From Eledone cirrhosa (taxonomy: Eukaryota): a DNA stretch of 64,000 nt. Under the pieces are notes generated by a model. It made no database searches and was not told the origin of the DNA. It saw only the letters and a program-made list of their open reading frames with translations. Within the stretch, counting starts at the first letter, position 1. Every line of letters begins with the position of its first letter. Made by a program: the position numbers and the translations under genes. Below are positions 3,977 to 52,845 of the stretch, in pieces. The stretch is from positions 126,542,001 through 126,606,000 of the forward strand of contig OZ024741.1 of NCBI GenBank assembly GCA_964016885.1, in the 5' to 3' direction.

Positions 3977-4161
3977 CATAGATATATATATATATATATA
4001 CATATATATATCATATATATATATATATATATATATATGAATATAGACATAGAATATTCGAAAATATTCTGTATGTTTATAATAAACATTTTGAAGACCT
4101 AATCGCTATAGAATAGAATACGTCACGTATTACAATTAGATTCTCGATAAAAGCAAGGGAA

Positions 4162-4204
4162 GTAATCTACGCGTTTCATTCTCGTTAGAAATCATCAGGA
4201 CTAC
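4162..4204 (-). ncRNA. Minimal type I hammerhead, family B, minus strand (second copy 4472-4514)
   Basis: Reverse complement of the 5048-5090 motif. Confidence 0.85.
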
Positions 4205-5047
4205 ATATCCAGTGCTTTTATCGAGAATGACACAGCTAGAGACTTATAGAATACTTAGCTGTGTACAGGAACTGGTTTGAAAGAGCGGTTGCCGGTCCGG
4301 CAGAAATTAGAAATTGGAATAAATGCTCTGAAATAGCGATATATATGTGAATATAGACATAGAATATTCGAAAATATTCTGTATGTTTATAATAAACATT
4401 TTGAAGACCTAATCGCTATAGAATAGAATACGTCACGTATTACAATTAGATTCTCGATAAAAGCAAGGGAAGTAATCTACGCGTTTCATTCTCGTTAGAA
4501 ATCATCAGGACTACATATCCAGTGCTTTTATCGAGAATGACACAGCTAGAGACTTATAGAATACTTAGCTGTGTACAGGAACTGGTTTGAAAGAGCGGTT
4601 GCCGGTCCGGCAGAAATTAGAAATTGGAATAAATGCTCTGAAATAGCGATATATATGTGAATATAGACATAGAATATTCGAAAATATTCTGTATGTTTAT
4701 AATAAACATTTTGAAGACCTAATCGCTATAGAATAGAATACGTCACGTATTACAATTAGAGAATGAAACGCGTAGATTACTTCCCTTGCTTTTATTGAGA
4801 ATCTAATTGTAATACGTGACGTATTCTATTCTATAGCGATTAGGTCTTCAAAATGTTTATTATAAACATACAGAATATTTTCGAATATTCTATGTCTATA
4901 TTCACATATATATCGCTATTTCAGAGCATTTATTCCAATTTCTAATTTCTGCCGGACCGGCAACCGCTCTTTCAAACCAGTTCCTGTACACAGCTAAGTA
5001 TTCTATAAGTCTCTAGCTGTGTCATTCTCGATAAAAGCACTGGATAT

Positions 5048-5090
5048 GTAGTCCTGATGATTTCTAACGAGAATGAAACGCGTAGATTAC
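5048..5090 (+). ncRNA. Minimal type I hammerhead, family B (identical copies at 5358-5400, 5668-5710, 5978-6020)
   Basis: GTAGTC-CTGATGA-T TTCT aacg AGAA T-GAAA-CGCG-TA-GATTAC; helix I extended by a 16-bp IR ATTCTCGATAAAAGCA/TGCTTTTATCGAGAAT. Confidence 0.85.
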
Positions 5091-6277
5091 TTCCCTTGCT
5101 TTTATCGAGAATCTAATTGTAATACGTGACGTATTCTATTCTATAGCGATTAGGTCTTCAAAATGTTTATTATAAACATACAGAATATTTTCGAATATTC
5201 TATGTCTATATTCACATATATATCGCTATTTCAGAGCATTTATTCCAATTTCTAATTTCTGCCGGACCGGCAACCGCTCTTTCAAACCAGTTCCTGTACA
5301 CAGCTAAGTATTCTATAAGTCTCTAGCTGTGTCATTCTCGATAAAAGCACTGGATATGTAGTCCTGATGATTTCTAACGAGAATGAAACGCGTAGATTAC
5401 TTCCCTTGCTTTTATCGAGAATCTAATTGTAATACGTGACGTATTCTATTCTATAGCGATTAGGTCTTCAAAATGTTTATTATAAACATACAGAATATTT
5501 TCGAATATTCTATGTCTATATTCACATATATATCGCTATTTCAGAGCATTTATTCCAATTTCTAATTTCTGCCGGACCGGCAACCGCTCTTTCAAACCAG
5601 TTCCTGTACACAGCTAAGTATTCTATAAGTCTCTAGCTGTGTCATTCTCGATAAAAGCACTGGATATGTAGTCCTGATGATTTCTAACGAGAATGAAACG
5701 CGTAGATTACTTCCCTTGCTTTTATCGAGAATCTAATTGTAATACGTGACGTATTCTATTCTATAGCGATTAGGTCTTCAAAATGTTTATTATAAACATA
5801 CAGAATATTTTCGAATATTCTATGTCTATATTCACATATATATCGCTATTTCAGAGCATTTATTCCAATTTCTAATTTCTGCCGGACCGGCAACCGCTCT
5901 TTCAAACCAGTTCCTGTACACAGCTAAGTATTCTATAAGTCTCTAGCTGTGTCATTCTCGATAAAAGCACTGGATATGTAGTCCTGATGATTTCTAACGA
6001 GAATGAAACGCGTAGATTACTTCCCTTGCTTTTATCGAGAATCTAATTGTAATACGTGACGTATTCTATTCTATAGCGATTAGGTCTTCAAAATGTTTAT
6101 TATAAACATACAGAATATTTTCGAATATTCTATGTCTATATTCACATATATATCGCTATTTCAGAGCATTTATTCCAATATATATATATATATATATATT
6201 TATTTATATATATATTATATATATATATATTATATATATATATATTTATTTATATATATATTATATATATATACATA

Positions 6278-8644: not shown

Positions 8645-10069
8645 TCAGATATTCAGGACGTATCGGAGGGTTCTTGCTGTTCCAAGCAAGCATGCCTTTT
8701 GAAGCGTTCCAAAAAGCGTGAAGGGGCCGATTTTCTTTAACCATCCCTGGAAACTTTTGGAGATAGTCCCCAGTGCGCCTATGACAATCGAGATCACTTT
8801 GACTTCATGGCAGTTCCAAATCCTTTTCACCTCCCACTTTAGGTCCTGGTATCGGTTAATTTTCTCCCTCTCCTTCTCTTGCACTCTCGTGTCGAACGGG
8901 CAGGCCACATCCACAATCAGGCACGATCTTTTTTCTTTGTCCACAACCACCAGGTCAGGTCTATTGTGTTCCAGTTTTTTGTCCGTCTGTATCCTAAAAT
9001 CCCACAGCACCTTCACCTGATTGTTCTCCATCACCGCCTCTGGCCTATGCTCATACCATTTCTCAGAATGTGGTAAATTGTTTACTTTGCACAGGTGCCA
9101 GTGGATCACCCTGCCCATCACATCGTGTCTCCAGCCCTTATAGTGGGTCTGGGCTAGGTGTTTACACTCGGATACAATGTGAGCCACAGTCTCCTCTCTC
9201 TCTCCACAGATCCTGCACAGTGGGCTAGCCTCCTCCTTGTAGATATGGTGCTTCAACCACTTCGTTTTGAGGGCCTGCTCCTGCGCAGCCATTAGCATTC
9301 CTTCTGTAGCCTTTTTGAGGTCTCCTCTTCTCAACCAGTTCCATGTCTGTGGATCTCTAAATTCAGTTTTCTCAAAGAAGGTACTATGAAGGGATTTTCC
9401 CTTAAGGCTGCTCTTCCTCCTTGATGTTATTTCCTCCTTGGACATCCCCTGGCCTACTGTCCCCTCCTTCAGTACAGTTCTGAGCATTGGCTCCTTACTA
9501 TAGGTCACGTATTTGTATAGGTTGTTTTTCTCCATCTGAACACAGTCCTCTATGCTGATAAGACCTCTTCCACCCTCAGATCTCCTTAGGTAGAGTCTAT
9601 CGACATCACTCCTCTTGTGGAACATGTTGTAGATAGTCAATAGCTTCCTAGTCTTCCTATCCATTTCTTTTTGTTCAGCAACATTCCATCTCAGAATTCC
9701 CGCACTGTACCTAATAATAGACACAGCTCGGGAATTTACTGCGCTTATGGCATTTCTGCTGTTCAGATGTGACTTCAATACGCTCCTTACTCTCCGAATG
9801 TATTCAGTTCTTAACAATTCCTTCATTTTTTTGTTCTTTATGCCATCAGCCTCCAGAACGCCCAAATACTTGTATCCTTCCTCAGAGTCAATTTCCTTTA
9901 TCATCTCACCTGTTGGTATCTGGATCCCGTTACTTCTGCTCAACCTGCCCCTCTTCATCACAATGACTCCACATTTACCAATACATATATCACTGCTGAA
10001 AATACGGACAGTGTCAACAAGCACATCCAACTCCTTCTCACTTTTCCCGAAGAGCTTAAGATCGTCCAT
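8645..10069 (-). CDS. RT C-terminus + CCHC zinc knuckle + restriction-like endonuclease
   Basis: (HLLF)MDDLKL, YKYLG, RLYLRRSEGGRGL, AAQEQAL, CRICGEREETVAHIVSEC, RHD, RPDLVVVD..IVDVACP, EKINRY; apparent short in-frame deletion near SSDICIGKC. Confidence 0.9.
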   Translation of the reverse strand: MDDLKLFGKSEKELDVLVDTVRIFSSDICIGKCGVIVMKRGRLSRSNGIQIPTGEMIKEIDSEEGYKYLGVLEADGIKNKKMKELLRTEYIRRVRSVLKSHLNSRNAISAVNSRAVSIIRYSAGILRWNVAEQKEMDRKTRKLLTIYNMFHKRSDVDRLYLRRSEGGRGLISIEDCVQMEKNNLYKYVTYSKEPMLRTVLKEGTVGQGMSKEEITSRRKSSLKGKSLHSTFFEKTEFRDPQTWNWLRRGDLKKATEGMLMAAQEQALKTKWLKHHIYKEEASPLCRICGEREETVAHIVSECKHLAQTHYKGWRHDVMGRVIHWHLCKVNNLPHSEKWYEHRPEAVMENNQVKVLWDFRIQTDKKLEHNRPDLVVVDKEKRSCLIVDVACPFDTRVQEKEREKINRYQDLKWEVKRIWNCHEVKVISIVIGALGTISKSFQGWLKKIGPFTLFGTLQKACLLGTARTLRYVLNI

Positions 10070-10080
10070 GAAGAGGAGGT

Positions 10081-10147
10081 GATTGATGGTAAGCTCTCCC
10101 CTTGATTGATGGTAAGCTCTCCCCTTGATTGATGGTAAGCTCTCCCC

Positions 10148-10148
<1 letters not shown>
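10081..10148. repeat. 23-bp triplication at the 5' truncation point of the Dong-like element
   Basis: GATTGATGGTAAGCTCTCCCCTT x3. Confidence 0.95.
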
Positions 10149-10227
<79 letters not shown>

Positions 10228-10345
10228 CTTACATTAAACTATAATTACACTCCTTATTCCTTACATTAAACTGCAACTATGTTGACACTCTTTAAATAAT
10301 GTTTTCCTTGTGAAATTTGTGGTCTTGTTTTGCTTAACTAATGAA

Positions 10346-10403
<58 letters not shown>

Positions 10404-10531
10404 AAAGTTCTATTTAAATTGTTGGGATACAACAAGCAAATATTTTTATGACTGATATAAAGCACTCAACAAGTATTTGGAGTAAACACACGATATTACC
10501 AAATGGAAACTATATTTATAAAACCATATTT

Positions 10532-10594
10532 ATTTCATTATACATATTTCAAGGACACCACGTTAAATTATGGTGTGCTTTCATCAGACAAAAT
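10532..10594 (-). ncRNA. Hammerhead in the inverted pLTR of PLE-2
   Basis: Reverse complement reads TTTTGT-CTGATGA-AAGCACACCAT..GTGGTGTCCTT-GAAA-TATGTA-TA-ATGAAA. Confidence 0.75.
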
Positions 10595-10902
10595 ATAATA
10601 TAGATCAGTTTTATAAATAAATATTGACATACCCTTAAAAAATGCAACCATTACTGTTGGAAGCTCCCGGATAGTGGAGTTGTTTACTTATATTAATATT
10701 AGTATTGGATATTTTTATTTTTAAAAATAAGCCGTTGGGTTACAGAGAAAGAAAAAGAAGGAGAGAGAGAAAAAGAAAGAAAAAAAGAAAAAAGAGAGAA
10801 AGGAGAGAGAGAAAAAGAAAGAAAAAAAGAAAAAAGAGAGAAAGGAGAGAGAGAGATACCAAAACAACAGAGAGAGAGAGAAAGATATATAGAGAGAGAA
10901 GA

Positions 10903-12488
10903 GACAGAATAATACCACAAATTAAGAATTTATCTAATTTATCTTATTTAAAATTATGGAAAGGAACTAGTGAAGTTATCGATTGGTTTAAAGAAATTAA
11001 ATATAACTATAATAATAAGTTTATTCAGTTGGATATTACTAACTACTACTCATCTATCACTCCTAATCTACTGAATAAGGCACTAACTTATGCATTTAAA
11101 CATACAGACATAACTAGCAATGAAATACACATTATATTATCGGCACGGAAAACATTAATAGAATTTAATAACCAACTCTGGACTAGGGCAGATAGAAATA
11201 ATAATTTCGACATAACTATGGGATCTTCCGACTCCGCTCAGGTAACGGATCTTGTGGGCCTATTTATAATTAATTCTTTACATAGAAAAATACCTGAGAT
11301 AACCGGAGGCTTATATCGTGACGACATGCTTTTACTTATAGAAAATAATAACTGTGAACTAAATAGAAAAAGAAAACAAATTATACAATTTTTTAATTAC
11401 CTTAATCTAAAAGTAGAAATAGAGAATAACCATAAAATAGTCAATTTTCTAGATGTAACACTAAATCTTAACACATGTCTTCATTATCCATTTCACAAAC
11501 TAAATGAGAACTTAAATTATGTCAATTTTAACTCTAATCACCCCAGATCCGTTAAAAATACTATAGTGAACTCTGTACAATAACGAATTTCGAGTATTTC
11601 AGCTAATAAGAATATATCTGATGAAAAAGCACATTATTACAACGAAGCGTTAGGTAGAGCTGGGTATAGAAATAAAATTAAATACATCGATAATAATAAT
11701 AATATAACAACTAACCATAATCGTAACAATTTTAACTATGATAACAATTTTAACAACTATAATAGAAAACCTTACATTAATTCCGAAAGCCGAAAAAGAA
11801 ATAGAACTAGGAACATATTATGGTTCGCTCCTCCTTTCTCATTAAATATTAAAACCCCTATTGCTAAACTATTATTTAAAGCTCTTGACAAATGCTTCCC
11901 TAGAACACATAAATATTACTCAATTTTTAATAGACATACTATTAAATTAACTTATTCTTCCACCAAAAATTTAGCGCAAAATATTATTAGAATTAATAAT
12001 AGAAATTTAAAACCTAACCAAAATACCAATAATAACCCAAGCAATATTCAATCTGATAAATGTAACTGTAGAAATAAATCTAACTGTCCTTTAAATAACA
12101 ATTACTTAGCTAAAAATGTAGTATATAATTGTAATGTAAAAACTAATTTAAATTCATTTAATTATGTGGGATCTAATTCCACAGAGTTTAAATCCCGCTT
12201 CAATAATCATAAAAATTCTTTTACAGATCCAAACAAAAAATCTTCAACTTCTCTATCTAGACTATTATGGGACCTAAAACTAGAGAACGTTGAATATTCG
12301 TTGATTTGGAATATTATTTCAAAGCTACTCCTTTTAATTCCTCTTCAGAAAATTGCGACCTTTGTATAGAGGAAATATTCTTTATATTAAAGACCAAAAA
12401 TTCCCTGAACTTAAGGAATAATTTATTCAATTGCTGCAGTCATAGATTAAACTCAACATTTAAATATAAATATAAATTTAAAATGTAG
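10903..12488 (+). pseudogene. PLE-2 RT + GIY-YIG ORF, disrupted (stop at 11581, frameshift ~12320)
   Basis: FIQLDITNYYSSI, FDITMGSSDSAQ, GGLYRDD, NFLDVTLNL, ILWFAPPFS, CNCRNKSNCPL, VVY..YVG, CDLCIEE, CSH. Confidence 0.9.
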
Positions 12489-13939
12489 TATATAATTAAT
12501 TAATTAATTTTATTAATATATGAAACCTGTCGATAAATCATTAGATTCCTTTATCTTTTTTTGATTAAACACTCAAGTATAAATAACTTTTCTTCCTAAA
12601 TATAAATAAAAATAATATAATAAACTATTCTATAGAAATATATTGAGAGCTCTTGAAAGGAGAAAATGTTTCCTATTTTTATTTTTATTTTTTTATTGTT
12701 TTTTTATTTTTTTATTATTTTCTTATAGCTTCTCCTATTTTCGAGATTTATCCTTTCAATATTTTTAGTTAAATATAAGTAAGACAAATTTGTATACTAA
12801 ATCTATTAAACATACTATTATTTTGAAATTATAACTTAAAATATTCTATAATATTTTAAAATTGTATTGCTTTTAAAGTTATATTGCTATAATTATATTT
12901 ACAAATTGTAATATAATCCATTTGTATTTTATGTACTCAATTATACTATGTACTGTATTGATGTATACTTCTCTCTATATGTGAGTGTATATGTGTATGT
13001 GTATATTGACATACATGTACATATGTTCTATGCGTTTTTATGAATATATGTCTGTCTGTATGTATATGTATACGTGATGCGTATCTACCTATTGGCTGAG
13101 GATACACACACATGTATATATATGTATATGTGAGAATTATATATGTACATGTGCGTGTATATCCATACAATTTGATTGCACTTATGTATAATGTTTATCC
13201 CAATGATTCCTGAGAGATAGACATATAATTAACAGCCATAAATACAAAACAGGTAATCTTATATATATATATAAATTTTATTTAATAACATAAAGTGTGT
13301 ATAACATTAAATTAAAGAATCCTTTATGCTTTGTGTGTATATATTATATACGTAGTTAGATATGGTATGTATTTTATAAGTGTGTATATATATTTATATG
13401 TATTTTTGCGTGCGTGTACGTGTTATATGATATTTAGTTCTCTAGCAATATATGGATTTCTTAATGTATAGATCCCAATTTTTAATTTATTGATCTCAAT
13501 TTTTAAATGATTAACTAAACATCTAAGCATATTTAAACAATGATTAATTTCTCATATTATATATGTCATTCATGATTATTAACATTTCTAATTTTATTTA
13601 TTCATTTCATCTCAATTGTTAAGTTAACTCAACAAGATATGACTTAGAGTTTTCGTTCTCTCCCCTTCTCTCTGTCTCCTCTCTCTCTCTATATCTTTCT
13701 CTCTCTTTTGTATTGGTATCTCTCTCTCTCTTTTCTCTCTTTTTTCTTTTTTTTCTTTCTTTTTCTCTCTATCCTTCTTTTTCTTTCTTTGTAACCCAAC
13801 GGCTTATTTAAAAAAATAAAAATATCCAATACTAATATTAATATAAGTAAATAACTCCACTATCCGGGAGCTTCCAACAGTAATGGTTGCATTTTTTAAG
13901 GGTATGTCAATATTTATTTATAAAACTGATCTATATTAT

Positions 13940-14025
13940 ATTTTGTCTGATGAAAGCACACCATAATTTAACTTGCTTTCACACCATAATTTAACGTGGT
14001 GTCCTTGAAATATGTATAATAAAAT
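13940..14025 (+). ncRNA. Hammerhead in the 3' pLTR of PLE-2
   Basis: CTGATGA at 13947, GAAA at 14007, TATGTA-TA-ATAAAA; 23-nt insertion/duplication inside helix II. Confidence 0.75.
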
Positions 14026-14065
14026 AAATATGGTTTTATAAATATAGTTTCCATTTGTTAATATC

Positions 14066-15930
<1,865 letters not shown>

Positions 15931-16279: not shown

Positions 16280-19200
16280 CCGTTAGGGTATAATGTGGGG
16301 CTGTAATGCAGGAAAGTGTTATGCAATTTATGTTTATAAACCGAAATTGCCTCAGATTTTTTGTTTAAGATGTGGTCATTGGCGTAGAGTATTTCCAGGG
16401 CTCCGCCATGATACATTTAAAAAATAGCGACAACGGAGATGTAAAAGCGATGAAACTGTTGACGGAAAATGTTCATGAATTTTCACTGAATGTCGATGAG
16501 AAGCTTCAAGCAGTGATTTTGAAAATAGATGTTGCTGGTTTGAATGAATGAGTTATATTTACCAATATGAAGAGTTGACCTTCGCTATATTGTTGTTTTA
16601 CTGTATTCACATATAGACTTCTTAAGCTTTTTTAGTGTCCCTTTTCTAGCAATTAAAAAGAAACTGAAATGCATTTCAACTAAAAGTGTGATAGCTGTTT
16701 CACATCACTGTAGAATTTCTTTGTAGACACAGTTGTCATCAAACGGACCCCTTTCACTTAATATTTTTATATTTTCTTTTTTTGTAACTCGTGATAATGC
16801 AACATACATTTGACCATGTGAAAAGAATTGTGTTGGTAGATATACACCTATCTTTTCAAATGTCTGCCCTTGTACCTTGTTGCATGTAAGGGCAAAAGCT
16901 GGTTTGACAAGAAATTGCTTGTGAGTAAAGGTGAAAGGGAACACAAGCTCTTGAGATACATGTGGTATCCTTGGGAATAGCAACCTTGTTCCAGCATTGG
17001 GACCCAATGCCACTTCAGCTTCAATTACATGATTATGTAAACTGATGATGATGTAGCGTGTCCAATTGCAATGCCCGTTTAGAGGATCAAGATTTCTCAG
17101 AAGCATGATGCAACTGCCTTCCTTCAGTTTAAGTATGTGTGTTGGGAAGCCTAATGGGGTAAGTTTGTTGATTAACTCAATTGGATATTGCAGTTCATTA
17201 TCTACTGTATCAGGGCTTCTGTAGATTATTTCATGACCAGGGAACTTGTTGACCATGAACTCATTCACCAATGTTGCTGCATCATTTGTTGGAGTGATAA
17301 TGGCTCTATTTGCAAGCCATAGTGGGTTTGTGTAGTTTCTTGGAAGATTTGTATACACAAAATCACACAGTCCAGACACATTACCATATTTCAGACAAAG
17401 TTCATTTAGCAGAAGAATTGTGAATGCATCTACAGTTGGAACAGTTGGAATGTTACCATTTCCCACATGAAGAAGGTAGTTTGCAAACTGTCTTTCATCA
17501 GAATCTTCTGTATTAATTAACTGTTGATTGGTTGTCCTCTCCATGGTTTCCACATAGTCCCAGAGATAGGATCTCTTGATGGTTGCCTCATCTATTTGTG
17601 CTCTAGCACCATGACGTACAACTGGAAGAAGTTGCTTCCAGTCACCAGATAGTAATACTGTTAGACCACCAAATGGCGTTTTGCAATCTCGAACATCTTT
17701 TAAGCTCCATTCAAAGATATGCTTATGTCCCATACCTATCTCATCAATGATTAGCAGGTCAGCTTGCTGCATAAGTTTACCTGTGTCATCCCTCTTTGTG
17801 AAGAAGCAAGTTGATTCAGCAGTCACATTGAGAGGAATCTTGCACTTGGAATGAAGAGTTCTACCTTTGTGAAGCAAAGTGGCTGCTATTCCAGATATGG
17901 CAGTGGCAAGTGCAATTTCTTTTTAGATTGGAGATAATCTAATAGTATGTTTATGACATAGGTCTTTCCTGTACCTGCACTTGCATTCAAGCAGAAAATT
18001 CTGCCTTCATTTTCATTTACAGAGGTGATTACTTTGTGAAAAATAACCAGTTGCTCAGGATTCAATGTTGGCAGAAGTTCATTTGTGTTTGCTTGCTGTT
18101 GGTGTGTATTGAAATCAGTTTCTGCCATAAGTTTCTGGTATGGCAACAATAGTTGGATCTGGCCGAGGAAGTCCATAGTTGGCATGAATGTCCAAGCCAT
18201 CATGTTGAAGTCTTTGATGGATCTTCTGTAGAACAATCTGCATGGTTTGCATGGACAAGACTTGCTCACGACGTTCATGCATGATATTCTCTGCAAGACA
18301 ATTCTTCCATTTCTCCCAGAACTGCAGAGGGTCATTTGGCATGCAGTACAATAAAATGGTGCAGACGATCTCTCGCAGCTGAGGACCAAGCTTAATGGAT
18401 GAGGGCTCTTCCATAGCTTTGTCTTTTTCTCCATCTTCATCTAACAGACCAAGTTTCCTGCATGCTTCTTGGAATGTTGGAAATTCAACTCCTTCAATTG
18501 TCCTCAATTCTTTGTATAAACTTGACCCAGCCTTGTGATGTAGGATCATTCTGAGGTAATATAATTCAGATTGATGTCTACTGAGAGATACTGTTGGAAT
18601 GCGTCCAAGAGATGCACTCATAAATTGTTGATCACCATGCAGACGTCCCTTTATTCTTCTTTGCCACCTTTTGTTTGTCCAAGTGAAATATTTAGGAATA
18701 TCAATATACAATATACAATATACAATAGTGAAAGTAATCTTGTCTGATCTTTTCGTGATGTACTTATATAAGTACTTAACAGCCTTGACACTGTGGACAA
18801 CCTCACAATTGATGTGGTACTGATATCTCAATGAGAGGAAAGTGTTGTATGGAACAATCCAACGATTATCAACAGTAAATTCTCGACCTTTAAGTTGGAT
18901 TGTATGGGTGTGACCACCATGCTGTCTATCCCTTCTTCTATACTCCGGAAAGGAATGTTCGGCAACAAATGTGGTGTCTCAATGACTTGGGATAACCTTT
19001 TGAGCAATGGCGTTGTTGTCCTAGCCCTTCCATACATGGGCACATCATATTAGCTTGTCCACATCGGCCATGAATGTTGCAGGATGTGACGATCTTATGC
19101 AGAATTGGATTGGTCTCTTTATCAGGAATCTCACAGTACACTACTTGATCAATGGCATCAGCAGTTTTGGGCTTGCTATCTTCAGCCATTATCAGCAGAA

Positions 19201-20918
19201 TATGAGCATGAGTGAGGCCTTGTTTCTGCCACTCTATTGTAGCCGAATGCGCCACAACTTTTCCTAGGACATTTTTTTTCAGTATGTCATCCATGAGGCT
19301 GTCATACTTGATCTTGAAGACTCTTGCACAAATATCAAGCCGGTCTCTAGGTTCTTCACCAGGGTACAAACTATTTTTTATTTCATCCCAGTTAGGGTTA
19401 GTTGTTACCGTGACGAAATAAGATGGCTTTCCCATGTGTCGAACCGCAGTCATCGAATTCTGAAAGCACTCACTATAGAAGCGAGGTGAACCATAGATTG
19501 AAGGAGGAAGAACAATTCTCCGGCCTGCATTTACTGAATCTCCCTCAGCCACAGCATCATACAAACCCTCATACTTTTCAGCTCGTATCATGGTTTGATT
19601 GTTGCGGGCCCATTTGAGGCGACAATGTTCTATTTTTGCCTGGGCATCTACAGCAGATTGCTGCATCAGCCGCCTGCTCTCTTGATAATGTTACAGTCAC
19701 CTTGCCTAACCTGAAACCGATAACAGTAGAGATCAGTGGGTGTGAGTGTATGGTTGTTGTCAATCATTTTCAAACCAACCAGAAACCCATCATTCCCCCA
19801 AGGAAACAGTACCACATAATGCAGAGGATCATAAGAGCGGTGAAACTGATGAATCATCTAAAGACCACCATCTCTTTTATGAATGATGACATCCAAAAGA
19901 CCTAATGCTGTATCAAGTTGAATAACAGCAATCCCAGATGCTATGGGAAGATTATATGTGCGACAATGAAAATCAGTGGGTTTTACTTCATCAGCATGTA
20001 GGACAATATTCACATTTTCAGAGACTGGCATTTCAATGACTGATTTGAAGGTTCTTATATAGTGTTGCAGTAGTGAAAGTCTTCTTGCAGGTCCTGCAGG
20101 ACAGCAACATCTAAATTAGCATGATGCAAGCGATTCTGAGGCTCATGATCTGTATCATAGAAGTAAAGCTGCGCAAACTTGGGTGAAGCACCACTTGGAA
20201 GTAGTGATCCAATAATATGAAAAATCTTACCTTGGATCTTTAATGTGGGACTAAATCCTGGTGCTTTCATCTCTTTGCAACCAATTGAAGCTAAGGCAAG
20301 CACATTGTTATATGCCCGTATCTTATGGAGAAAAGAATTTCCTGCTTGAGTGATATCGAAATATTTCAGTATATTTGGTGGACGAGGAGGAAGTTGAAGG
20401 AGTTTGACTTTTCCCTGAAAGCAGCACAGAGATTTGTGTTCATGCGGCCAGCGATAAGCTTTGCAGTGCGGACAAACAGAGGCAAATAGACTCCCTGCAT
20501 TATGTTGTGGCATTATGGAAAGAACAGTTTGCTCTTGGAAAGGTAGGATTCTTTGCCAGACCTTCAATTGACCTGTTCCGTGTATTTGTTACAAGTTGTA
20601 GTTGGTGTGTTAACTGAATTACATTTGTAGAAATTTGTTGGGATGTTGTAGAGCGATTATTGTTTGATTGATTTGCCCTCTTCTCTCTTTGTCGTTGTGT
20701 GTCTTCTGCCATGCGTTGGTATTTAGATGAGAAATGTTTTCTGCGTCCCATATTCAATCTCTGTCATGTATGTATAAATATATGTTATATCTCTACGGTG
20801 AAATCTTAGAAATAAATATGTTAAAACAAAAAAAAAAATAAATATATATATAGCTGACACGGAGAAAGGAAATCTTTGAAATAAATGTATGTTTGAAATA
20901 TGTATTATCGTCTGCTAT

Positions 20919-20971
<53 letters not shown>

Positions 20972-21034
20972 AGCGTGTTGAAACAAATCCAAATCGCTTC
21001 ATTTTTCTCTTTCACTCTCTCTCTATAGTATAGA
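16280..21034 (-). mobile_element. Autonomous-type Helitron (decayed); 5' end at 21034, 3' end not located
   Basis: Minus strand starts A|TCTATACTATA at 21034 (Helitron 5' TC); left boundary is approximate. Confidence 0.7.
16705..20757 (-). pseudogene. Helitron Rep-Helicase (RepHel), fragmented by frameshifts and stops
   Basis: CPHC..CC zinc motif, IRAYNN, PKFAQLYFYD, YDPLHYVVLFP, HUH Rep motifs YFVTVTTNPNW / EWQKQGLTHAHILL / KYLYKYITK, PIF1-like helicase AGTGKT, IIDE, GDWKQLLPV, NKVQGQT, HGQMYVALSRV. Confidence 0.93.
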
Positions 21035-21220
21035 TATACCGAAATATATATAATAAAATAATTATGGTTTTATAAATATAGTTTCCATTTATTAATATAT
21101 TGAATATATTACTCCAGTACTTGTTGAGTGCTCTATATCCCAACAAATTAAATATAACTTCTGCATATATTTAGCTCCTTTATTGTGAGCACTTTAAATT
21201 ATAACTGATAATTAAATAAT

Positions 21221-21393
21221 TGTTTCTACTTTAGGCACAGGGCCAGCAATTACCCAGTGCATTACTGGTACTTTATTTTATCGACCCCGTAAGGATGAAA
21301 GGCAAAGTCAACCTCGGCGGGATTTGAACTCAGATCGTAAAGGGACGTAACTATGCTGGAAAGCATGGCGTCCGACCCTCTACCGATACTGCC
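21221..21393 (-). mobile_element. SINE inserted just upstream of the PLE-3 start codon
   Basis: Same family as 8350-8540; TSD AATTAAATAAT at 21210-21220 and 21394-21404. Confidence 0.9.
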
Positions 21394-21402
21394 AATTAAA
21401 TA

Positions 21403-23546
21403 ATGGAATTCTTTAAGATCTCTTCTTCTCTAAAAGACATACCTCTACCTAAGAATAAGGACTATCTCAAACAACTCATTGAGAAATTTGACTCCTTTAT
21501 AAGAAGACTTAGATGGCGTGCCTTCCATTTCGATAGAAATCAGATGAAAAAACGAATAAATCCAACTTCGATATGATCTTCAAATCCAAGAAAAATCCAC
21601 TATTAATGGAATTTGAAAATGAAATAATATCAATTATACAAAACATCAAATTCAAGAAAAAAACAATTTGTAGGCCAGGAATACCTTAAAGGCCTTAAGA
21701 ATAATATAAAAAACTGAGAAAATTCTCGTTAAATCTGACAAAACCAACAATCTATATGGAATGCAAAAGGACGAATATAATAATCTAAGGAAAAACTATA
21801 AAAGAACAACCAATGATGACCCTGAAATGCTAAATAGAGAAGCTTCTGATATAATTCATAAATTAGGCATCGAAAATAGGACCGAACCCTTTATACCTAG
21901 AAAACCAAAAATTAATTTGAAAGACCTCAAAAGAAACTTTGAAATAGAATTACCAGTTAGACTTATAGCACCATCTAAAACAGACTTGGGCATAGTTAGT
22001 AAACATATATTAGATAGAATCATACCGCAATCTAAAGAAATATCTTACTTAAAACTATGGAACGGTACTAATGAAGTTATAGATTGGCTCAATAACATAA
22101 AATATAAGCATAACAAAAAATTCATTCAGTTGGATATTGCAAATTACTACTCATCTATCACTCCTAATTTACTTAATAAGCCCTTATCTACGCATCTAAA
22201 TATACTGATTTATCTAGTGATGAAATGCATATCATTTTAACTGCACGGAAAATCTTAATTAAATTTAACAACCATCTTTGGACCAGAGCAGATAGAGATA
22301 ATCATTTCGATATCAGACTCGGCGCAAATAACAGATCTTGTGGGGCTTTTTATTAACAATACATTACATAGAAAACTACCGGAGATGACCGGTGGTTTAT
22401 ATCGTGATGATATGCTCCTGTTAATTGAAAATAATAATAATTGTGAAATCAATAGAAAAAGAAAATCAATAATACAATGTTTGAATAGCTATAATCTTAA
22501 GTTAGAAATAGAGAATAATTATAAAATTGTTAACTTTTTAGACGTAACATTAAACCTTAATACTGGGCCTTACTATCCATTCCATAAAATTAATGAGAAC
22601 TTAAACTATGTTAGCTTCAACTCTAATCATCCTAGATCCATTAAGAACACTATCGTAAATTCTGTACAACAACGTATTTCTCGAATCTCAGCGAATAAAA
22701 GTATATTTGAAGATAAGGCACAATATTATAACGAAGCCTTAAGTAGAGCAGGCTATAATAATTAAATTAAATACATCGACAACAATGATAAGGCAATTAA
22801 CCATAATATTAATTATAATTATAATAAGAAACCTAGCATAAACTCTAAAACTAACAGAAGAAATAGAACTAGAAACATAATCTGGTATGCTCCTTCATTT
22901 TCACACCTTTAGCTAAACTATTTTTAAAGCTCTTGATAAATGTTTTCCCAAGGCCCATAGATATTACTCAATCTTTAACAGACATACAATTAAACTCTCT
23001 TACTCTACTACTAAGAACCTAGCACAAAATATAAATAGAATCAATAATAGAAATCTAAACCTTAACCAGAATAGCACTAATACCTCTAGCAATGTTCCGA
23101 ATAATATAAACTCTGATAAATGTAATTGTAGAATTAAATCTAACTGTCCTTTAAAAAATAACTGTTTAGTTAAAAATGTGGTCTATAAATGCAACGTCAA
23201 AACCAATGATAATAGTTTTAACTATTTTGGCTCAACTTTAAAGACTTTAAATCTCGTTTCAATAACCATAAATGCTCGTTTAATAATATTGGTAAAAAAT
23301 CTTCAACTTCTCTATCCAACTTGATATGGAACTTAAAATCCAAAAATAGAGACTATTCTTTAACTTGGAATATAATTTCAAAGCACCCGCTTACAATACA
23401 CAGCTTTATCCAAATTTTGCAAACTGTGTGTTGAGGGAATTTTCTTCATACTTAAATGTAAGAACTCCATTAACTTACGTAACAATTTATTTAGTTCTTG
23501 TAAACATCGCCAAAACTCAACTTTTAGATCTATATATAAAATATAA
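21403..23546 (+). pseudogene. PLE-3 complete-length ORF remnant (N-term + RT + GIY-YIG), multiple frameshifts and stops
   Basis: ATG at 21403 gives MEFFKISSSLKDIPLP..YLKQLIEKFDSFIRRLRWRAFHF; KSDKTNN; RLIAPSK; LDIANYYSSI; GGLYRDD; CNCRIKSNCPL; CKH. Confidence 0.9.
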
Positions 23547-25045
23547 TTACACGTTTAATCTTCTCTACATAATGTTTACTTTATCCAAACACCTATAATC
23601 TCATTTCTTAAATTATATGCATATATGTTCATAAATTCTAAATCTTTAAATTTAAATTTAACGTAATTCTAATTTTAATAGCTTTTACTTCTTAAATATA
23701 TATAATTTACTTCTTAAATCTTTACTTTTTAATATTTTTACTTCTTAAATATCTTTATTTTTTATCATTATTTTTATCATTATTTTTTATCTTTATTTAC
23801 CTTACTTCCAAAATATTTCATAATCTTTTTAGAAAAATTACTTAAAATTTTTTTAAATTACTTATTTCCAAAAAAGACTATTTTATTTTGGTCATCTTAA
23901 TATTTTAAATATATTTTTAAATATTTTTAAATATTTTAAAGTATTTTTAAATATTTCTTAATATTTCTTTATATTTTTTGAATAATTTTAGGTTTTTAAT
24001 TAATTTTAAACACTTTATAAATGTTTTTAAAAGGTTTTTGAATAACTTCGGAGTCTTTTTGAGATCTTTTAAAAATCTCTCGGAAAGTTTTTCCAGGAAT
24101 TTTCAAGAATTTTGTCTTGAATTGTTAATATGTTATAGTCTTAATTTTTAAATGGTTTTAGTATTTTCTTATACTTTTAATAATTTTTAATTTTTTAATT
24201 ATTTAATATTAGAGTTATAACCAATAACTAACTCTGGCTAAATATATTTTTAAACATATCTTTGTCAAAATTATCTCATAATAAATAATAAATAAACAAA
24301 ACTGGGATTTTCTATATTTTTCCAATGTAAAACATTAAAAACATATAAGTAATCTTGTTAACTCAGTTAATTTAATTTAATTTAATTTAATTTAAATACT
24401 TACACTAAATATAGACTTGTATCCCTCATAATTTATCATCTATAACATGATATACCCATCTATCCACTCATATATCTATCCTTATATCTATCCTTATATT
24501 TATATTTTATCCTACGCTTCTACTTCATATTTATTTTAAATCTATTTTCTAATATATTTTAATATATTTTAATATATCTTAATATATTATAATATATCTT
24601 TATCTTTTAATATATGTTTATTTTTTCTATTTATCTAATTTTTTATATACATATAATAGTAAATAAATATTTATTATAATAGAATTCTAACAATTATTAG
24701 TAAATATACGTAACATAAATCTGAAACATAAACATAAGACTTATTTACGTTATATGAACTCATCCTCGGATAAGCTTCTTTCTTCGCTCTTTCTTCACTC
24801 TATTTCTTCACTCCATTTCTACATATACTAATTTCTTTTCTTTTCTTTCTCTTCTTTTTTTTCTCTCTCTTCTTCCCACAGCGTAATTTAAATAAACGGT
24901 TGTTTTCTTCAATTTTTCGGACATTCATTTGCATATTCACACAGAACTTTGAATTACCCTCAATAAAATCTTTCACTATCCAGCGAATTTTCAACCGTCA
25001 AGGTTGTTTTCCACGGTTATGTGACTATTTATAAAACAAATATTG

Positions 25046-25110
25046 TATTTTATCTGATGAAAGCGCTCCAAGATTGCCTTGGTTGCCCTTGAAATATATG
25101 TAATAAAATA
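25046..25110 (+). ncRNA. Hammerhead in the PLE-3 3' pLTR
   Basis: TATTTTAT-CTGATGA(25054)-AAGCGC..GCCCTT-GAAA(25091)-TATATG-TA-ATAAAATA. Confidence 0.8.
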
Positions 25111-25148
25111 ATTATGGTTTTATAAATATAGTTTCCATTTATTAATAT

Positions 25149-25198
<50 letters not shown>

Positions 25199-25199
25199 C

Positions 25200-25385
25200 A
25201 ATATGTTCAAAAGGCAACACACCAGAGAGAGAGATAGTGTGCCATCAATAAAATAGGGAAAACCACCAATATATAGAATCCATACTCTATGGAAGGCAGG
25301 GTAAACACACATTAATTAAAAATATAAATTAAAATGTATATACGCACCTCTACAACTATATAACACACGCGTACAAATCCAAAGA
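25200..25385. repeat. Dispersed repeat fragment, homologous to ~39315-39500
   Basis: Shared ATATGTT.AAAAGG.AACA..GCCATCAATAAAA.AGGG..GTACAAATCCAAAGA. Confidence 0.75.
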
Positions 25386-25448
25386 TATATATATATATAA
25401 TATATACCTTATATTAATAAATGGAAACTATATTTATAAAACCATAAT

Positions 25449-25515
25449 TATTTTATTATATATATTTCAAGGGCAACCAAGGGCAAATTTTGGTGCGCTT
25501 TCATCAGATAAAATA
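25449..25515 (-). ncRNA. Hammerhead in a solo inverted pLTR fragment of the PLE-3 family (~25410-25560)
   Basis: Reverse complement of the ~24980-25150 region with an internal deletion. Confidence 0.75.
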
Positions 25516-28547: not shown

Positions 28548-28644
<97 letters not shown>

Positions 28645-28660
28645 TATATATAATATATAT

Positions 28661-28694
<34 letters not shown>

Positions 28695-28721
28695 ATATAT
28701 ATATATATATAAATAATATAT

Positions 28722-28808
<87 letters not shown>

Positions 28809-28918
28809 TATATATATAATATATATATATATAAATATATATATATAATATATATATATATATATAAATTATATATATAATATATATATATATATATAAT
28901 ATATATATATATATATCA

Positions 28919-28994
<76 letters not shown>

Positions 28995-29061
28995 ATATAT
29001 ATATATATATAATATATATATATATATATAAATTATATATATAATATATATATATATATAT

Positions 29062-29115
<54 letters not shown>

Positions 29116-29413
29116 ATATATATATATATATATATTATATATATAATATATATATATATATATATTATATATAATATATATATATATTATATATATAATA
29201 TATATGTATATATATATTATATATATAATATATATATATATATATTATATATATAATATATATATATATATTATATATATAATATATATGTATATATATA
29301 TTATATATATAATATATATATATATATCTTATATATATAATATATATATATATATATTATATATATAATATATATATATATATATTATATATATAATATA
29401 TATATATATATAT

Positions 29414-29476
<63 letters not shown>

Positions 29477-29482
29477 ATATAT

Positions 29483-29551
<69 letters not shown>

Positions 29552-29557
29552 ATATAT

Positions 29558-29588
<31 letters not shown>

Positions 29589-29619
29589 ATATATATATAA
29601 TATATATATAATATATATA

Positions 29620-29708
<89 letters not shown>

Positions 29709-29712
29709 TATA
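28548..29712. repeat. Imperfect (TA)n array
   Basis: Direct reading. Confidence 0.95.
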
Positions 29713-31201
29713 GTTACCCTCCGCCTCCGTGGTATTTTCTTCGTGGTTATAAGAGGCTTAGCTCTGTTTCTCGACCGTTATATCGCGTGACTATCTCCCC
29801 CTCCGCCTTTTGGATTTCTTTTCTCACGTCGTGTAGACGCGTTCTTGAGACTAGTAAAATGAGGTATCCTCTTGATAAGTTGGCAGACCTCGCAAGGACT
29901 CTATATCTTTGATATATTGTTTTTGTTTATGCCACGAAACTACGTAGTCGAGGAATTTAGGAGCAGTTTAGGTATGATACATTTTATTACTAATTATATC
30001 TAAATGTTTCTTCTCTCTTCATAATGTATTTTTAACTCTGATACTGGTTCAGTCTGGTTCAAACTGAATTGGTCTGTCCCAGTCATTCATTGAGCAACAT
30101 CGGTGAAGTTGGCACCCTTAACTCGCAGTTGGGTGCGGATGCATTCATGTATATATGTGTGTGTCCGCATGTATCTGTGTGTTTCTAAATATATTAATAA
30201 CTCCCTCTGGTCGAGCAATCTTTGAAGTGTGGGGACAACTGGAAAGCTTCCATTACTCGTACTTCTCGCCTTCTTCACTCCCTGTTCTACGGCCTCGATA
30301 TGAATACCCCCTCCGCCTCCGTGGTATTTTCTTCGTGGTTATAAGAGGCTTAGCTCTGTTTCTCGACCGTTATATCGCGTGACTATCTCCCCCTCCGCCT
30401 TTTGGGATTCTTTCTCACGTCGTGTAGACGCGTTCTTGAGACTAGTAAAATGAGGTATCCTCTTGATAAGTTGGCAGACCTCGCAAGGACTCTATATCTT
30501 TGATATATTGTTTTTGTTTATGCCACGAAACTACGTAGTCGAGGAATTTAGGAGCAGTTTAGGTATGATACATTTTATTACTAATTATATCTAAATGTTT
30601 CTTCTCTCTTCATAATGTATTTTTAACTCTGATACTGGTTCAGTCTGGTTCAAACTGAATTGGTCTGTCCAGTCATTCATTGAGCAACATCGGTGAAGTT
30701 GGCACCCTTAACTCGCAGTTGGGTGCGGATGCATTCATGTATATATGTGTGTGTCCGCATGTATCTGTGTGTTTCTAAATATATTAATAACTCCCTCTGG
30801 TCGAGCAATCTTTGAAGTGTGGGGACAACTGGAAAGCTTCCATTACTCGTACTTCTCGCCTTCTTCACTACCTCTTCTACGGCCTCGATATGAATACCCC
30901 TCCGCCTCCGTGGTATTTTCTTCGTGGTTATAAGAGGCTTAGCTCTGTTTCTCGACCGTTATATCGCGTGACTATCTCCCCCTCCGCCTTTTGGGATTCT
31001 TTCTCACGTCGTGTAGACGCGTTCTTGAGACTAGTAAAATGAGGTATCCTCTTGATAAGTTGGCAGACCTCGCAAGGACTCTATATCTTTGATATATTGT
31101 TTTTGTTTATGCACGAAACTACGTATTGGAGGATTTAGGAGCAGTTTAGGTATGATACATTTTATTACTAATTATATCTAAATGTTTCTTCTCTCTTCAT
31201 A

Positions 31202-31205
<4 letters not shown>
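29713..31205 (+). repeat. ~590-bp tandem repeat, ~2.5 copies, one variant HHR per unit (family C)
   Basis: CCCTCCGCCTCCGTGG at ~29717, 30309, 30898; flanked by (TA)n. Confidence 0.95.
29867..29954 (+). ncRNA. Type I hammerhead with U3-A8 core (copy 2 at 30458-30545; damaged copy 3 at 31047-31133)
   Basis: TCCTC-TTGATAA-GTTGGCA...TGCCAC-GAAA-CTACGTAG-TC-GAGGA. Confidence 0.75.
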
Positions 31206-31282
<77 letters not shown>

Positions 31283-31285
<3 letters not shown>

Positions 31286-31426
31286 ATTTATTAGTTAAGC
31301 AAAACAAGACCACAAATTTCACAAGGAAGACATTATGAAAAGCGTGTCAACATATATGTTGAAACTCTTTTAATAATGTCTTGCTTGTGAAATTTGTGGT
31401 CTTGTTTTGATTAACTAATGAATATT
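31283..31426. repeat. Imperfect palindrome ~144 bp; related fragment at ~10278-10348
   Basis: Centre CAACATATATGTTG; arms TTAGTTAA.CAAAACAAGACCACAAATTTCACAAG and its complement. Confidence 0.85.
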
Positions 31427-37075: not shown

Positions 37076-37082
<7 letters not shown>

Positions 37083-37515
37083 AAGTTAAATAAAAGTCAA
37101 ATGATTAAAATTTAGCTTCGTTTATTACTGCTATATATATTTCAGTGACAGCCATCTATGGCTATGACCTCTTCAGGCAGTTTGAATTAGTATGGTATAG
37201 ACAAGTACATATGTTGTTTAGGTGTATGATATTGTCAATACTCTGATATGCCCAGTTCCTTGCTGGGTTGTTTATTCACTGGGGAACTGGAGTCATGACT
37301 CCAGTTCCCCAGTGAATTAACAACCCAGCAAGGAACTGGGCATATCAGAGTATTGACAATATCATACACCTAAACAACATATGTACTTGTCTATACCATA
37401 CTAATTCAAACTGCCTGAAGAGGTCACAGCCAAAGATGGCTGTCACTGAAATATATATAGCAGTAATAAACGAAGCTAAATTTTAATCATTTGACTTTTA
37501 TTTAACTTTATTTTA
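37076..37515. repeat. Near-perfect 440-bp palindrome with two outward-facing hammerheads
   Basis: Centre GAGTCATGACTC (37295/37296); few mismatches. Confidence 0.95.
37410..37464 (+). ncRNA. Type I hammerhead (mirror copy 37127-37181, minus strand)
   Basis: ACTGC-CTGAAGA-GGTCACAGCCA..TGGCTGTCACT-GAAA-TATATA-TA-GCAGT. Confidence 0.8.
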
Positions 37516-37610
37516 CACTACTCCGGAGTAACCAAACCAACCTGCGCACTTCGTCGAGTGCTCCAGCCTGCATACTGAGGTGTTGGTATACAACCAACAT
37601 AAACTCAAAA

Positions 37611-37652
<42 letters not shown>

Positions 37653-51777: not shown

Positions 51778-52268
51778 CTGAGTTCAAATCCCACTGAGGT
51801 TAACTTTGCCTTTCATCCTTACGGGGTCGATAAAATAAAGTACCAGTAATGCACTGGGTAATTGATGGCCTTGTGCCAAAAGTAGAAACAATTATACTGA
51901 GTCTTTCAATCCCGCCGAGGTTAACTTTGCCTTTCATCCTTACGGGGTCGATAAAATAAAGTACCAGTAATGCACTGGGTAATTGATGGCCTTGTGCCAA
52001 AAGTAGAAACAATTATACTGAGTCTTTCAATCCCGCCGAGGTTAACTTTGCCTTTCATCCTTACGGGGTCGATAAAATAAAGTACCAGTAATGCACTGGG
52101 TAATTGATGGCCTTGTGCCAAAAGTAGAAACAATTATACTGAGTCTTTCAATCCCGCCGAGGTTAACTTTGCCTTTCATCCTTACGAGGTCGATAAAATA
52201 AAGTACCAGTAATGTACTGGGTATGTGCTGGCCTTGTGCCAATAGTAGAAACAATTATACTGAGTCTT
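51778..52268 (+). repeat. Tandem array of four 121-bp truncated SINE units
   Basis: TTAACTTTGCC at 51800, 51921, 52042, 52163. Confidence 0.95.
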
Positions 52269-52845
52269 TTTTTAAATGCCTGTTGCATTGTTAGACATAC
52301 GTATTCTTTTTGTTTGTTCGCGCGTTACGTTTGAGAGAGAGGGAAGAGGTGGAATAATATTTCCCTCTTTATATATAGATAGCATGACGAACGGGCGGAC
52401 ATGCAGACATGGGCTCTTATAGTATAGATTATAAACAAGAGTACTTGTGTGCTAGAAAGAGCAGTACATTATCCCCCCTCCCTCGCCCCCTCCCTCATTC
52501 TGTTTTCGGAAAAAAATCGATGGCGATATATCGGAGGTCAGATAAATTGAAAATACAGGAACAACCTTAATTATAATCAATTTCATTTAGTGTTATTAGC
52601 GGTCAACATATAAACAAATAAACTTCCTTTTGATAAGTATTATAAATATGTTGACTATTTATGCAATTATATCCTAGAAATAAAATATTAGTTTATTTAT
52701 TTCATCATTAATCACTTCCACGTGTCAGTAATCAGCAAGAATTGTAGGGTTTCTCTTATGCAAACCATTAATTTCCTAGTTTATATGATTGTTTATGTAA
52801 CTAGCAAAGCTGGTAAATATAACATACCAATCCTCGACTTTAAAA

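Follow-up and report, generated by a model that had tools for sequence, protein, structure and literature searches.

A non-coding tandem repeat of Eledone cirrhosa with U3-A8 hammerheads and two paired insertion ends: a likely non-LTR retrozyme

Our data suggest that the ~590-bp tandem repeat in the window (the 64,000-nt stretch of Eledone cirrhosa DNA analyzed here) belongs to a non-coding, high-copy non-LTR retrozyme family whose transcripts are predicted to cleave themselves into monomers of ~591 nt, likely to become circles, and to be copied by a borrowed PLE protein; we consider this reading as a whole likely. Insertions of the family end at two fixed positions of the unit, S1 and S2, inverted insertions combine one of each in most cases, and private mutations are, with few exceptions, found in all units of an array or in one unit only. 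The U3-A8 core of the hammerhead is already known, and the part worth following is the insertion rule.

Results

Array in the window

The array is a non-inverted, 5'-truncated insertion that lies in (TA)n and stops at S1.

28549..29712: (TA)n target, left flank, as observed
29717..31207, + strand: whole insertion as computed, 2.5 units of ~590 bp, non-inverted, 5'-truncated, 3' end at S1
29717..30304, + strand: unit 1
29861..29954, + strand: hammerhead 1, type I, U3-A8, including the 5' GAGGT strand; predicted cut after 29949
29861..29891, + strand: predicted pseudoknot of GAGGT 29861-65 with ACCTC 29887-91
29872..29878, + strand: core TTGATAA of hammerhead 1; U3 is 29872 and A8 is 29877
30000..30029, + strand: 3'-end site S1, 80 nt past the cut; recurs at 30620 and 31207
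30165..30194, + strand: 3'-end site S2, ~245 nt past the cut; recurs at 30784
30305..30894, + strand: unit 2, query of the genome searches
30452..30545, + strand: hammerhead 2, intact; predicted cut after 30540
30895..31207, + strand: unit 3, partial; stops at S1 and continues into (TA)n
31041..31133, + strand: hammerhead 3, with changes private to this array that degrade helix II and the cleavage site
31205..31291: (TA)n target, right flank, as observed

The copies are in register, with core-to-core spacings of 591 and 589 bp, and the preliminary description was right to see a hammerhead in a tandem repeat of ~590 bp: over the 2.5 units the hammerhead recurs three times, and the core reads TTGATAA in all three. 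A scan for type I hammerheads returned two intact motifs, at 29872-29949 and 30463-30540, both with this core. In hammerhead 1, helix I pairs TCCTC (29867-71) with GAGGA (29950-54) over 5 bp; helix II pairs GT(T bulge)GGCA with TGCCAC (2+4 bp, one bulge) and continues into a long extension, with 57 nt between the core and GAAA (29936-39); and helix III is a palindrome of 10 nt, followed by GTC with the predicted cut after 29949. The span 29867-29954 originally proposed as the ribozyme leaves out the invariant GAGGT at 29861-65, which is the predicted partner of ACCTC in helix II, and neither the pair of fixed 3' ends nor the PLE-like anatomy of the insertions had been noticed.

In copy 3, clustered changes remove one C from TGCCAC, convert GTAGTC to GTATTG and delete one A. 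The cleavage-site mutation that had been pointed out in the last copy is present but has no meaning for the family: it is found in one of 111 hammerhead strings (30 overlapping loci) and is therefore private to the window array, either as a one-off event or as an assembly error. Frequent damage to the 3'-most hammerhead was considered and rejected, as such damage is present only in the window array. Inside the repeat, no open reading frame of 100 aa was found except for frames that enter from the TA tract, and the 590-bp repeat lacks the RT and GIY-YIG ORF of an autonomous PLE. A long hairpin (inverted repeat) to the right of the insertion, at window positions 31300-31409, was scored as a chance miRNA match, and miRNA-like Rfam matches were rejected as chance.

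Family across the genome

In the genome searched (3.0 Gb, 1,796 contigs), unit 2 gave 582 candidate places, 40 of which were scored and yielded 193 matches; the 150 matches listed are 99-100% identical and spread over many contigs. The exact pattern of the window's own variant was found in 895 copies (11 for the control), the helix III motif 8,132 times (4 for the reversed control) and the core in its context 6,887 times (0 for the control), and given these counts the hammerhead motif is not a chance occurrence. Most copies have C in the helix II bulge; the window copy has T there and is part of a young minority. Clustering of 124 loci, which included searches from older copies and left out three unclustered rows, gave four subfamilies that are 76-92% identical and in all of which the core is fixed. 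At many dispersed loci the non-coding units stand in tandem with one type I hammerhead apiece, as in non-LTR retrozymes, and this supports the earlier assignment to a retrozyme-like family.

U3-A8 had been proposed as the state of the family, with mostly CTGATGA or unpaired 3/8 combinations in other genomic copies as the outcome that would speak against it. Only 16 of the 6,887 cores lack U3 and 15 have U3 without A8, so that 6,856 carry both, and the proposal is borne out. Three of the 31 exceptions (loci L031, L072 and L086) fail to align to the unit, among them the sole C3-G8 match, L086; no C3-G8 family member alignable to the unit was found in the genome-wide pattern search, and a single tight pattern for a U3-A8 relative with a short helix II gave 0 matches in the genome. 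In the arrays L173 and L172 (G000:C19:18237722, 18238313; G000:C5:39920686, 39921283), both tandem units have a common core mismatch, U3.G8 or U3.U8; here, a monomer with an impaired core may still have been released and copied, perhaps after being cut by its neighbor in a dimer.

The novelty claimed for U3-A8 does not stand. In the text of Perreault 2011 (PMC3088659), C3-G8 covaries to U3-A8 in several natural cases that are reported active, and that of Cervera 2014 (PMC4209133) describes U3-A8 in S. mansoni PLE ribozymes, with ~1,300 matches to a dedicated descriptor; by itself, this core matters little. The related claim that the family is invisible to standard screens is correct insofar as Rfam finds no hammerhead in the 590-bp array and none is among the matches listed for the window; however, Rfam equally misses the 310-bp family of the window, whose C3-G8 core is canonical, so the invisibility is not due to U3-A8 alone. 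Canonical descriptors, e.g. the pipeline of a 2026 preprint (10.64898/2026.07.22.740005) as we understand it from the text, could miss this family of ~7,000 copies. The literature covered, with few subscription papers, contains in its main texts no mention of the 590-bp family, of any tandem retrozyme with a U3-A8 core or of S1+S2 pairing counted as a rule, and the supplements of Cervera 2014/2020 and Craig 2021 may list the family or count tails; the main text of an Octopus repeat annotation mentions neither hammerheads nor retrozymes.

Conservation and predicted folding of the ribozyme

Across the four subfamily consensuses, 42 of 43 hammerhead columns are invariant compared to 376 of 567 elsewhere (Fisher P = 1e-6, for columns that are not independent). 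The lone variable column keeps the structure: it is a helix I pair that reads U-A in 258, U.G in 24, C-G in 23, C.A in 0 and otherwise in 4 of 309 copies, i.e. helix I compensates. On 15 real copies, 97.1% of the cells of the hammerhead pairing are paired and covariation has no clear excess over shuffles (31 and 21 of 500), and support for selection therefore consists of the conservation and of the one compensating helix I pair. Three helices surround the core with helix I open, as in type I hammerheads; U4, G5, A6 and A9, G12, A13 and A14, the A15.1-U16.1 pair and H17 are in place, with C17 in 308 of 309 copies; and positions 3 and 8 form a Watson-Crick pair, for which covariation to C3-G8 is seen only between families and not within this family.

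Two complementary strands, GAGGT just 5' of helix I and ACCTC inside the helix II internal loop, do not vary among the four consensuses, and both are exact in 276 of 308 matched copies, with no compensatory change seen. From this complementarity we infer a GAGGU/ACCUC pseudoknot between the 5' flank and helix II; section 7 of PMC3088659 gives about 40% as the share of hammerheads with a predicted contact of this kind. Alternatively, the consensus fold reads GAGG/CCUC as an anti-ribozyme hairpin. Both pairings may be possible, and given that GAGGT is unchanged at the 13 loci in which helix I turned to CCCC, we favor the pseudoknot.

The active monomer fold (-20.7 kcal/mol) is predicted to lie 1.6 kcal/mol above the minimum (-22.3 kcal/mol), and the helix III palindrome is predicted to pair with itself at -12.9 kcal/mol, which would suit the dimer form known for animal hammerheads (PMC4209133). 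As a circle, the monomer is predicted to be stably self-paired, as in retrozymes, with -169.2 kcal/mol versus -136.8 +/- 5.9 kcal/mol for 40 shuffles (z -5.5); the consensus fold of the whole circle has 21 broken, 8 compensatory and 35 consistent pairs. The predicted circular fold pairs the S1 region to the cleavage strand, so that the ribozyme would be switched off. The repeat family is real and abundant, and it is probably active.

Contigs of sequencing runs

The sequencing runs were available as assembled contigs only, and no run is recorded as RNA. Run X5 behaves as RNA in that one of its contigs, at depth 3,615, joins the exons of a ribosomal protein gene across a 308-nt GT..AG intron; run X1 covers this intron at a depth of 14.4. 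Contigs of X5 cover 30 of 30 bins of the unit; the contig across the junction has a depth of 118, and another, with a depth of 4.94, shows four A>G changes that are absent from X1. These contigs hint at transcription and editing of the family; DNA carry-over of a repeat with many thousand copies, or error, would also fit, as contigs can neither separate a circle from a tandem or RNA from DNA carry-over nor reveal cuts. Runs X4 and X6 each have a wrap-around contig of ~620 nt at depth ~8 and no control-gene contig, and they are no evidence that other species carry or express the family.

Two end sites and their pairing

Over 133 merged loci, 3' ends fall at two internal positions of the unit, S1 (+80 nt) and S2 (~+245 nt), where they are joined to (TA)n, and 5' ends are variable. 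The interval from S1 to S2 constitutes a "tail" of ~164 bp. Loose (AT)n ends occur at the same two places, 30620 and 30784, in the contigs of run X1. Non-inverted insertions end at S1 in 25, at S2 in 14 and elsewhere in 6 cases. Both ends could be seen in 92 inverted insertions: 79 are S1+S2, three S2+S2, two S1+S1 and eight have one unassignable end; S1+S2 therefore accounts for 79 of 84 assignable cases (P = 3e-18 versus 0.5), where an independent choice would give about half, in a set of loci that is non-random (best matches, first matches on contig C1 and loci picked for core variants) and counts two duplicated loci twice. Two of the five same-site insertions look, in our reading, like chaining artefacts. 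For an S1+S1 insertion on contig C19, an origin of the arms from two templates was rejected, because the discordance stems from a deletion in a short arm.

In three inverted insertions the arms are too short to include each other's end; these require two primings, and fold-back of one cDNA is excluded for them. The arm junctions have 0-29 common bases in 25 of 31 young cases, mostly 1-7, and arms reach a length of about 5.8 units. With 5' truncation, an inverted copy and a one-sided tail, the 590-bp family has the insertion anatomy of PLEs. At one locus (L071, G000:C1:50598700-50598770) short tandem copies of 11 bp taken from the unit fill the inversion junction, which suggests slippage while joining.

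Other hammerhead-bearing elements lie in the same window. The 310-bp tandem family at 4029-6179 has a canonical C3-G8 type I hammerhead and is inverted in (TA)n, with arm ends ~40 bp apart at different sites, i.e. in a one-of-each pattern. In the inverted element at 37078-37614, with CTGAAGA hammerheads at 37132-37176 (- strand) and 37415-37459 (+ strand), one arm halts at a TA tract and the other extends ~100 bp more. The hammerhead-bearing end of a different family runs into (TA)n at 2557-2650; an inverted relative is found at locus L191.

A probable single template per insertion

Private variants were counted in 69 young insertions, a sample from thousands from which three had been dropped as duplicates or merges. 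They occupy one unit in 105 cases, all covering units in 23 (15 of these across both arms) and some units in four, and 48 further private variants have a single covering unit. Where at least four units cover the position, the variant is in all units in 48 cases, in one unit in 43 and intermediate in four. In one array, four private changes are common to 7-8 units in both arms. Shared variants are mixed in 10 of 161 cases. In 23 of 31 insertions no other arm matched better than the insertion's own partner arm, which was strictly the best match in 13; in the other eight, the partner was surpassed by another arm. The all-or-one pattern is what repeated copying of one monomer predicts; unsampled small subfamilies could explain some of the "private" variants.

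PLEs of the same genome

A PLE-type RT fragment from the window has 36,793 candidate places in the genome. One PLE family has a 743-aa ORF with a Cys-rich linker and what we take to be RT and GIY-YIG motifs (names also used in the text of Craig 2021, PMC8557442); Pfam gave no meaningful match on the PLE proteins. This family has a C3-G8 hammerhead and a (TA)n target, its copies end at about +48 and +138 past their own hammerhead, and the two ends are paired in eight of nine assignable inverted copies, as read by eye. By blastn, the unit had only simple-repeat matches to 14 PLE loci and to two stretches of the window, and with no similarity to the unit the 743-aa PLE family, the one family examined, exhibits the rule and is not the parent.

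Two broken PLE copies in the window (10400-14067 and 21000-25510) have RT and GIY-YIG frames and C3-G8 hammerheads with an extra A after the core; that at 10400-14067 ends at +48 and +138. The window also holds a 527-residue open frame of a non-LTR retrotransposon RT at 8645-10228 (- strand), with a weak zf-RVT match below the cut-off; fragmented frames at 16705-20588 (- strand) that resemble what we presume, from their motifs, to be a Helitron Rep/Pif1 helicase; and at 51787-52269 four head-to-tail copies, 97% alike, of a 121-bp SINE-like unit, in which the hammerhead scan found none.

Discussion

Model for copying and insertion

Combining the anatomy with the predicted folds, we suggest the following scheme: (i) the tandem array may be transcribed, as the X5 contigs weakly suggest; (ii) adjacent hammerheads would cut the transcript, probably aided by helix III dimer pairing and the GAGGU/ACCUC pseudoknot; (iii) the monomer is predicted to be circularized and to refold with the cleavage strand paired away; (iv) a PLE protein would nick (TA)n and reverse transcription would start inside the RNA, at S1 or S2, the two ends observed; (v) often both DNA ends would be primed on one RNA, one at S1 and one at S2, in line with the observed pairing, and the two cDNAs would be joined by short microhomology to give head-to-head inverted insertions; and (vi) repeated rounds of the circle would generate arrays of identical units. 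Circles are formed by animal retrozymes (PMC7229834). Eight of nine Xenopus retrozyme dimers are described as lacking cleavage in vitro.

Alternatively, a PLE protein may copy uncleaved linear multimers, with the hammerhead kept for another purpose or acting later and no circle as template. The anole PLE PAc inserts in vitro from unprocessed RNA, with no need for hammerhead cleavage and no reads that end at the cut site (PMC11167929), and linear RNA would fit the internal starts and the S1+S2 pairing equally well. However, unit-specific mutations are common (105 in 69 insertions) and daughters of multimers should therefore often be mixed, yet in long arrays just 4 of 95 variants fall between one unit and all units, and 10 of 161 shared variants are mixed; moreover, 5' truncation would shorten the arrays in each round, yet arms reach ~5.8 units and the family persists over 24% divergence. 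We therefore regard linear multimers as an unlikely template. A cleaved linear monomer on which the RT jumps precisely from the 5' end to the 3' end, without a ligated circle, would impose the same one-monomer bottleneck, and the degraded junction in copy 3 of the window could be an error of such a jump; we find it improbable given that hardly any copy departs from an exact junction (C17 in 308 of 309; 110 of 111 strings without the copy-3 change) and that in other animal retrozymes circles predominate (PMC7229834).

Very improbable is satellite-like evolution at the DNA level, in which single insertions would be amplified by unequal crossing-over or conversion and inversions would arise by fold-back (self-priming) of a cDNA. 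Local amplification has been suggested in the retrozyme literature, self-priming has been proposed for inversions of rotifer PLEs (PMC3846280), and four intermediate variants are present, but gradual homogenization should leave many intermediates instead of the observed 48/43/4, the S1/S2 array ends and their pairing would be unexplained, and the three insertions with non-overlapping arms are beyond fold-back, which largely refutes this explanation for the 590-bp family. Finally, that the hammerhead is a dead relic in which U3-A8 is a chance double mutation carried along is hardly credible: no C3-G8 relative was found in the family, but conservation in its hammerhead columns far exceeds that of the other columns, helix I compensates and U3-A8 is reported active (PMC3088659).

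Within the favored scheme of copying from a circle, we tentatively propose, giving it slightly less than an even chance, that PLE integration is a fixed two-site reaction in which a protein dimer on one circular RNA primes at S1 and at S2 and both cDNAs are rolled round the circle. PAc starts reverse transcription in vitro at two internal sites that bound the tail (Frangieh 2024, PMC11167929), and it cuts and extends both strands and is modeled as a dimer (PMC11167929). If true, the rule would explain PLE tail, inverted copy and pseudo-LTR together, and this retrozyme, with its 164-bp tail, predicted pseudoknotted U3-A8 hammerhead and thousands of dated insertions, would be its clearest genomic record and a ready minimal substrate; the model of a dimer on one circle is directly testable with a 591-nt RNA. 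In the texts covered on the integration of PLEs and of animal retrozymes, circles are shown, PLE partners proposed and two RT starts seen in vitro, and these are not linked to each other. The genome supplies counts for the one-monomer bottleneck and for S1/S2 pairing on a common template, in a retrozyme and in an ORF-bearing PLE.

Comparison with known systems

In L1 twin priming, two primings on one RNA generate an inverted 5' part joined by microhomology. The 590-bp family resembles it in the proposed double priming on one RNA and in the microhomology-joined inversion, and differs in that both primings would occur at set positions within the unit and both arms may be longer than one unit. 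With the U3-A8 hammerheads of Perreault 2011 and the minimal ones of the S. mansoni Cercyon PLE (Cervera 2014), the family shares the 3-8 covariant core; as described in those texts, these are mostly single, heterogeneous minimal motifs, whereas here U3-A8 is fixed in a young tandem family of ~6,900 copies with a full helix I.

The likeness to animal non-LTR retrozymes as described by Cervera and de la Pena 2020 (PMC7229834) and Li, Clavereau, Pollet 2026 (10.64898/2026.07.22.740005) comprises tandem, non-coding units, each with a type I hammerhead and a short palindromic helix III, thousands of copies, a stable predicted circle and the co-occurrence of PLEs. The known retrozymes have units of 150-450 bp compared to 591 bp here, and the U3-A8 core, the 57-nt helix II arm with its predicted pseudoknot and the (TA)n target set the 590-bp family apart. 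The predicted self-blocked ribozyme in the circle is of a kind that the retrozyme literature calls unusual for animal retrozymes, and the two paired end sites have no counterpart in the descriptions of known ones cited here.

With PLEs (pseudo-LTR, tail and inverted copy; Craig 2021, PMC8557442; Adineta, PMC3846280; PAc, PMC11167929) the family shares 5' truncation, partial tandems, a head-to-head inverted copy, a tail at one end only, two internal RT start sites and an AT-rich or (TA)n target; it differs in having no ORF and a tail of ~164 bp instead of 30-40 bp. As described in these PLE papers, the tail is optional or one-ended (PMC8557442, PMC3846280) and one of them invokes self-priming (PMC3846280), whereas for the 590-bp family we count how often the one-end rule holds (79 of 84) and connect it with a common template.
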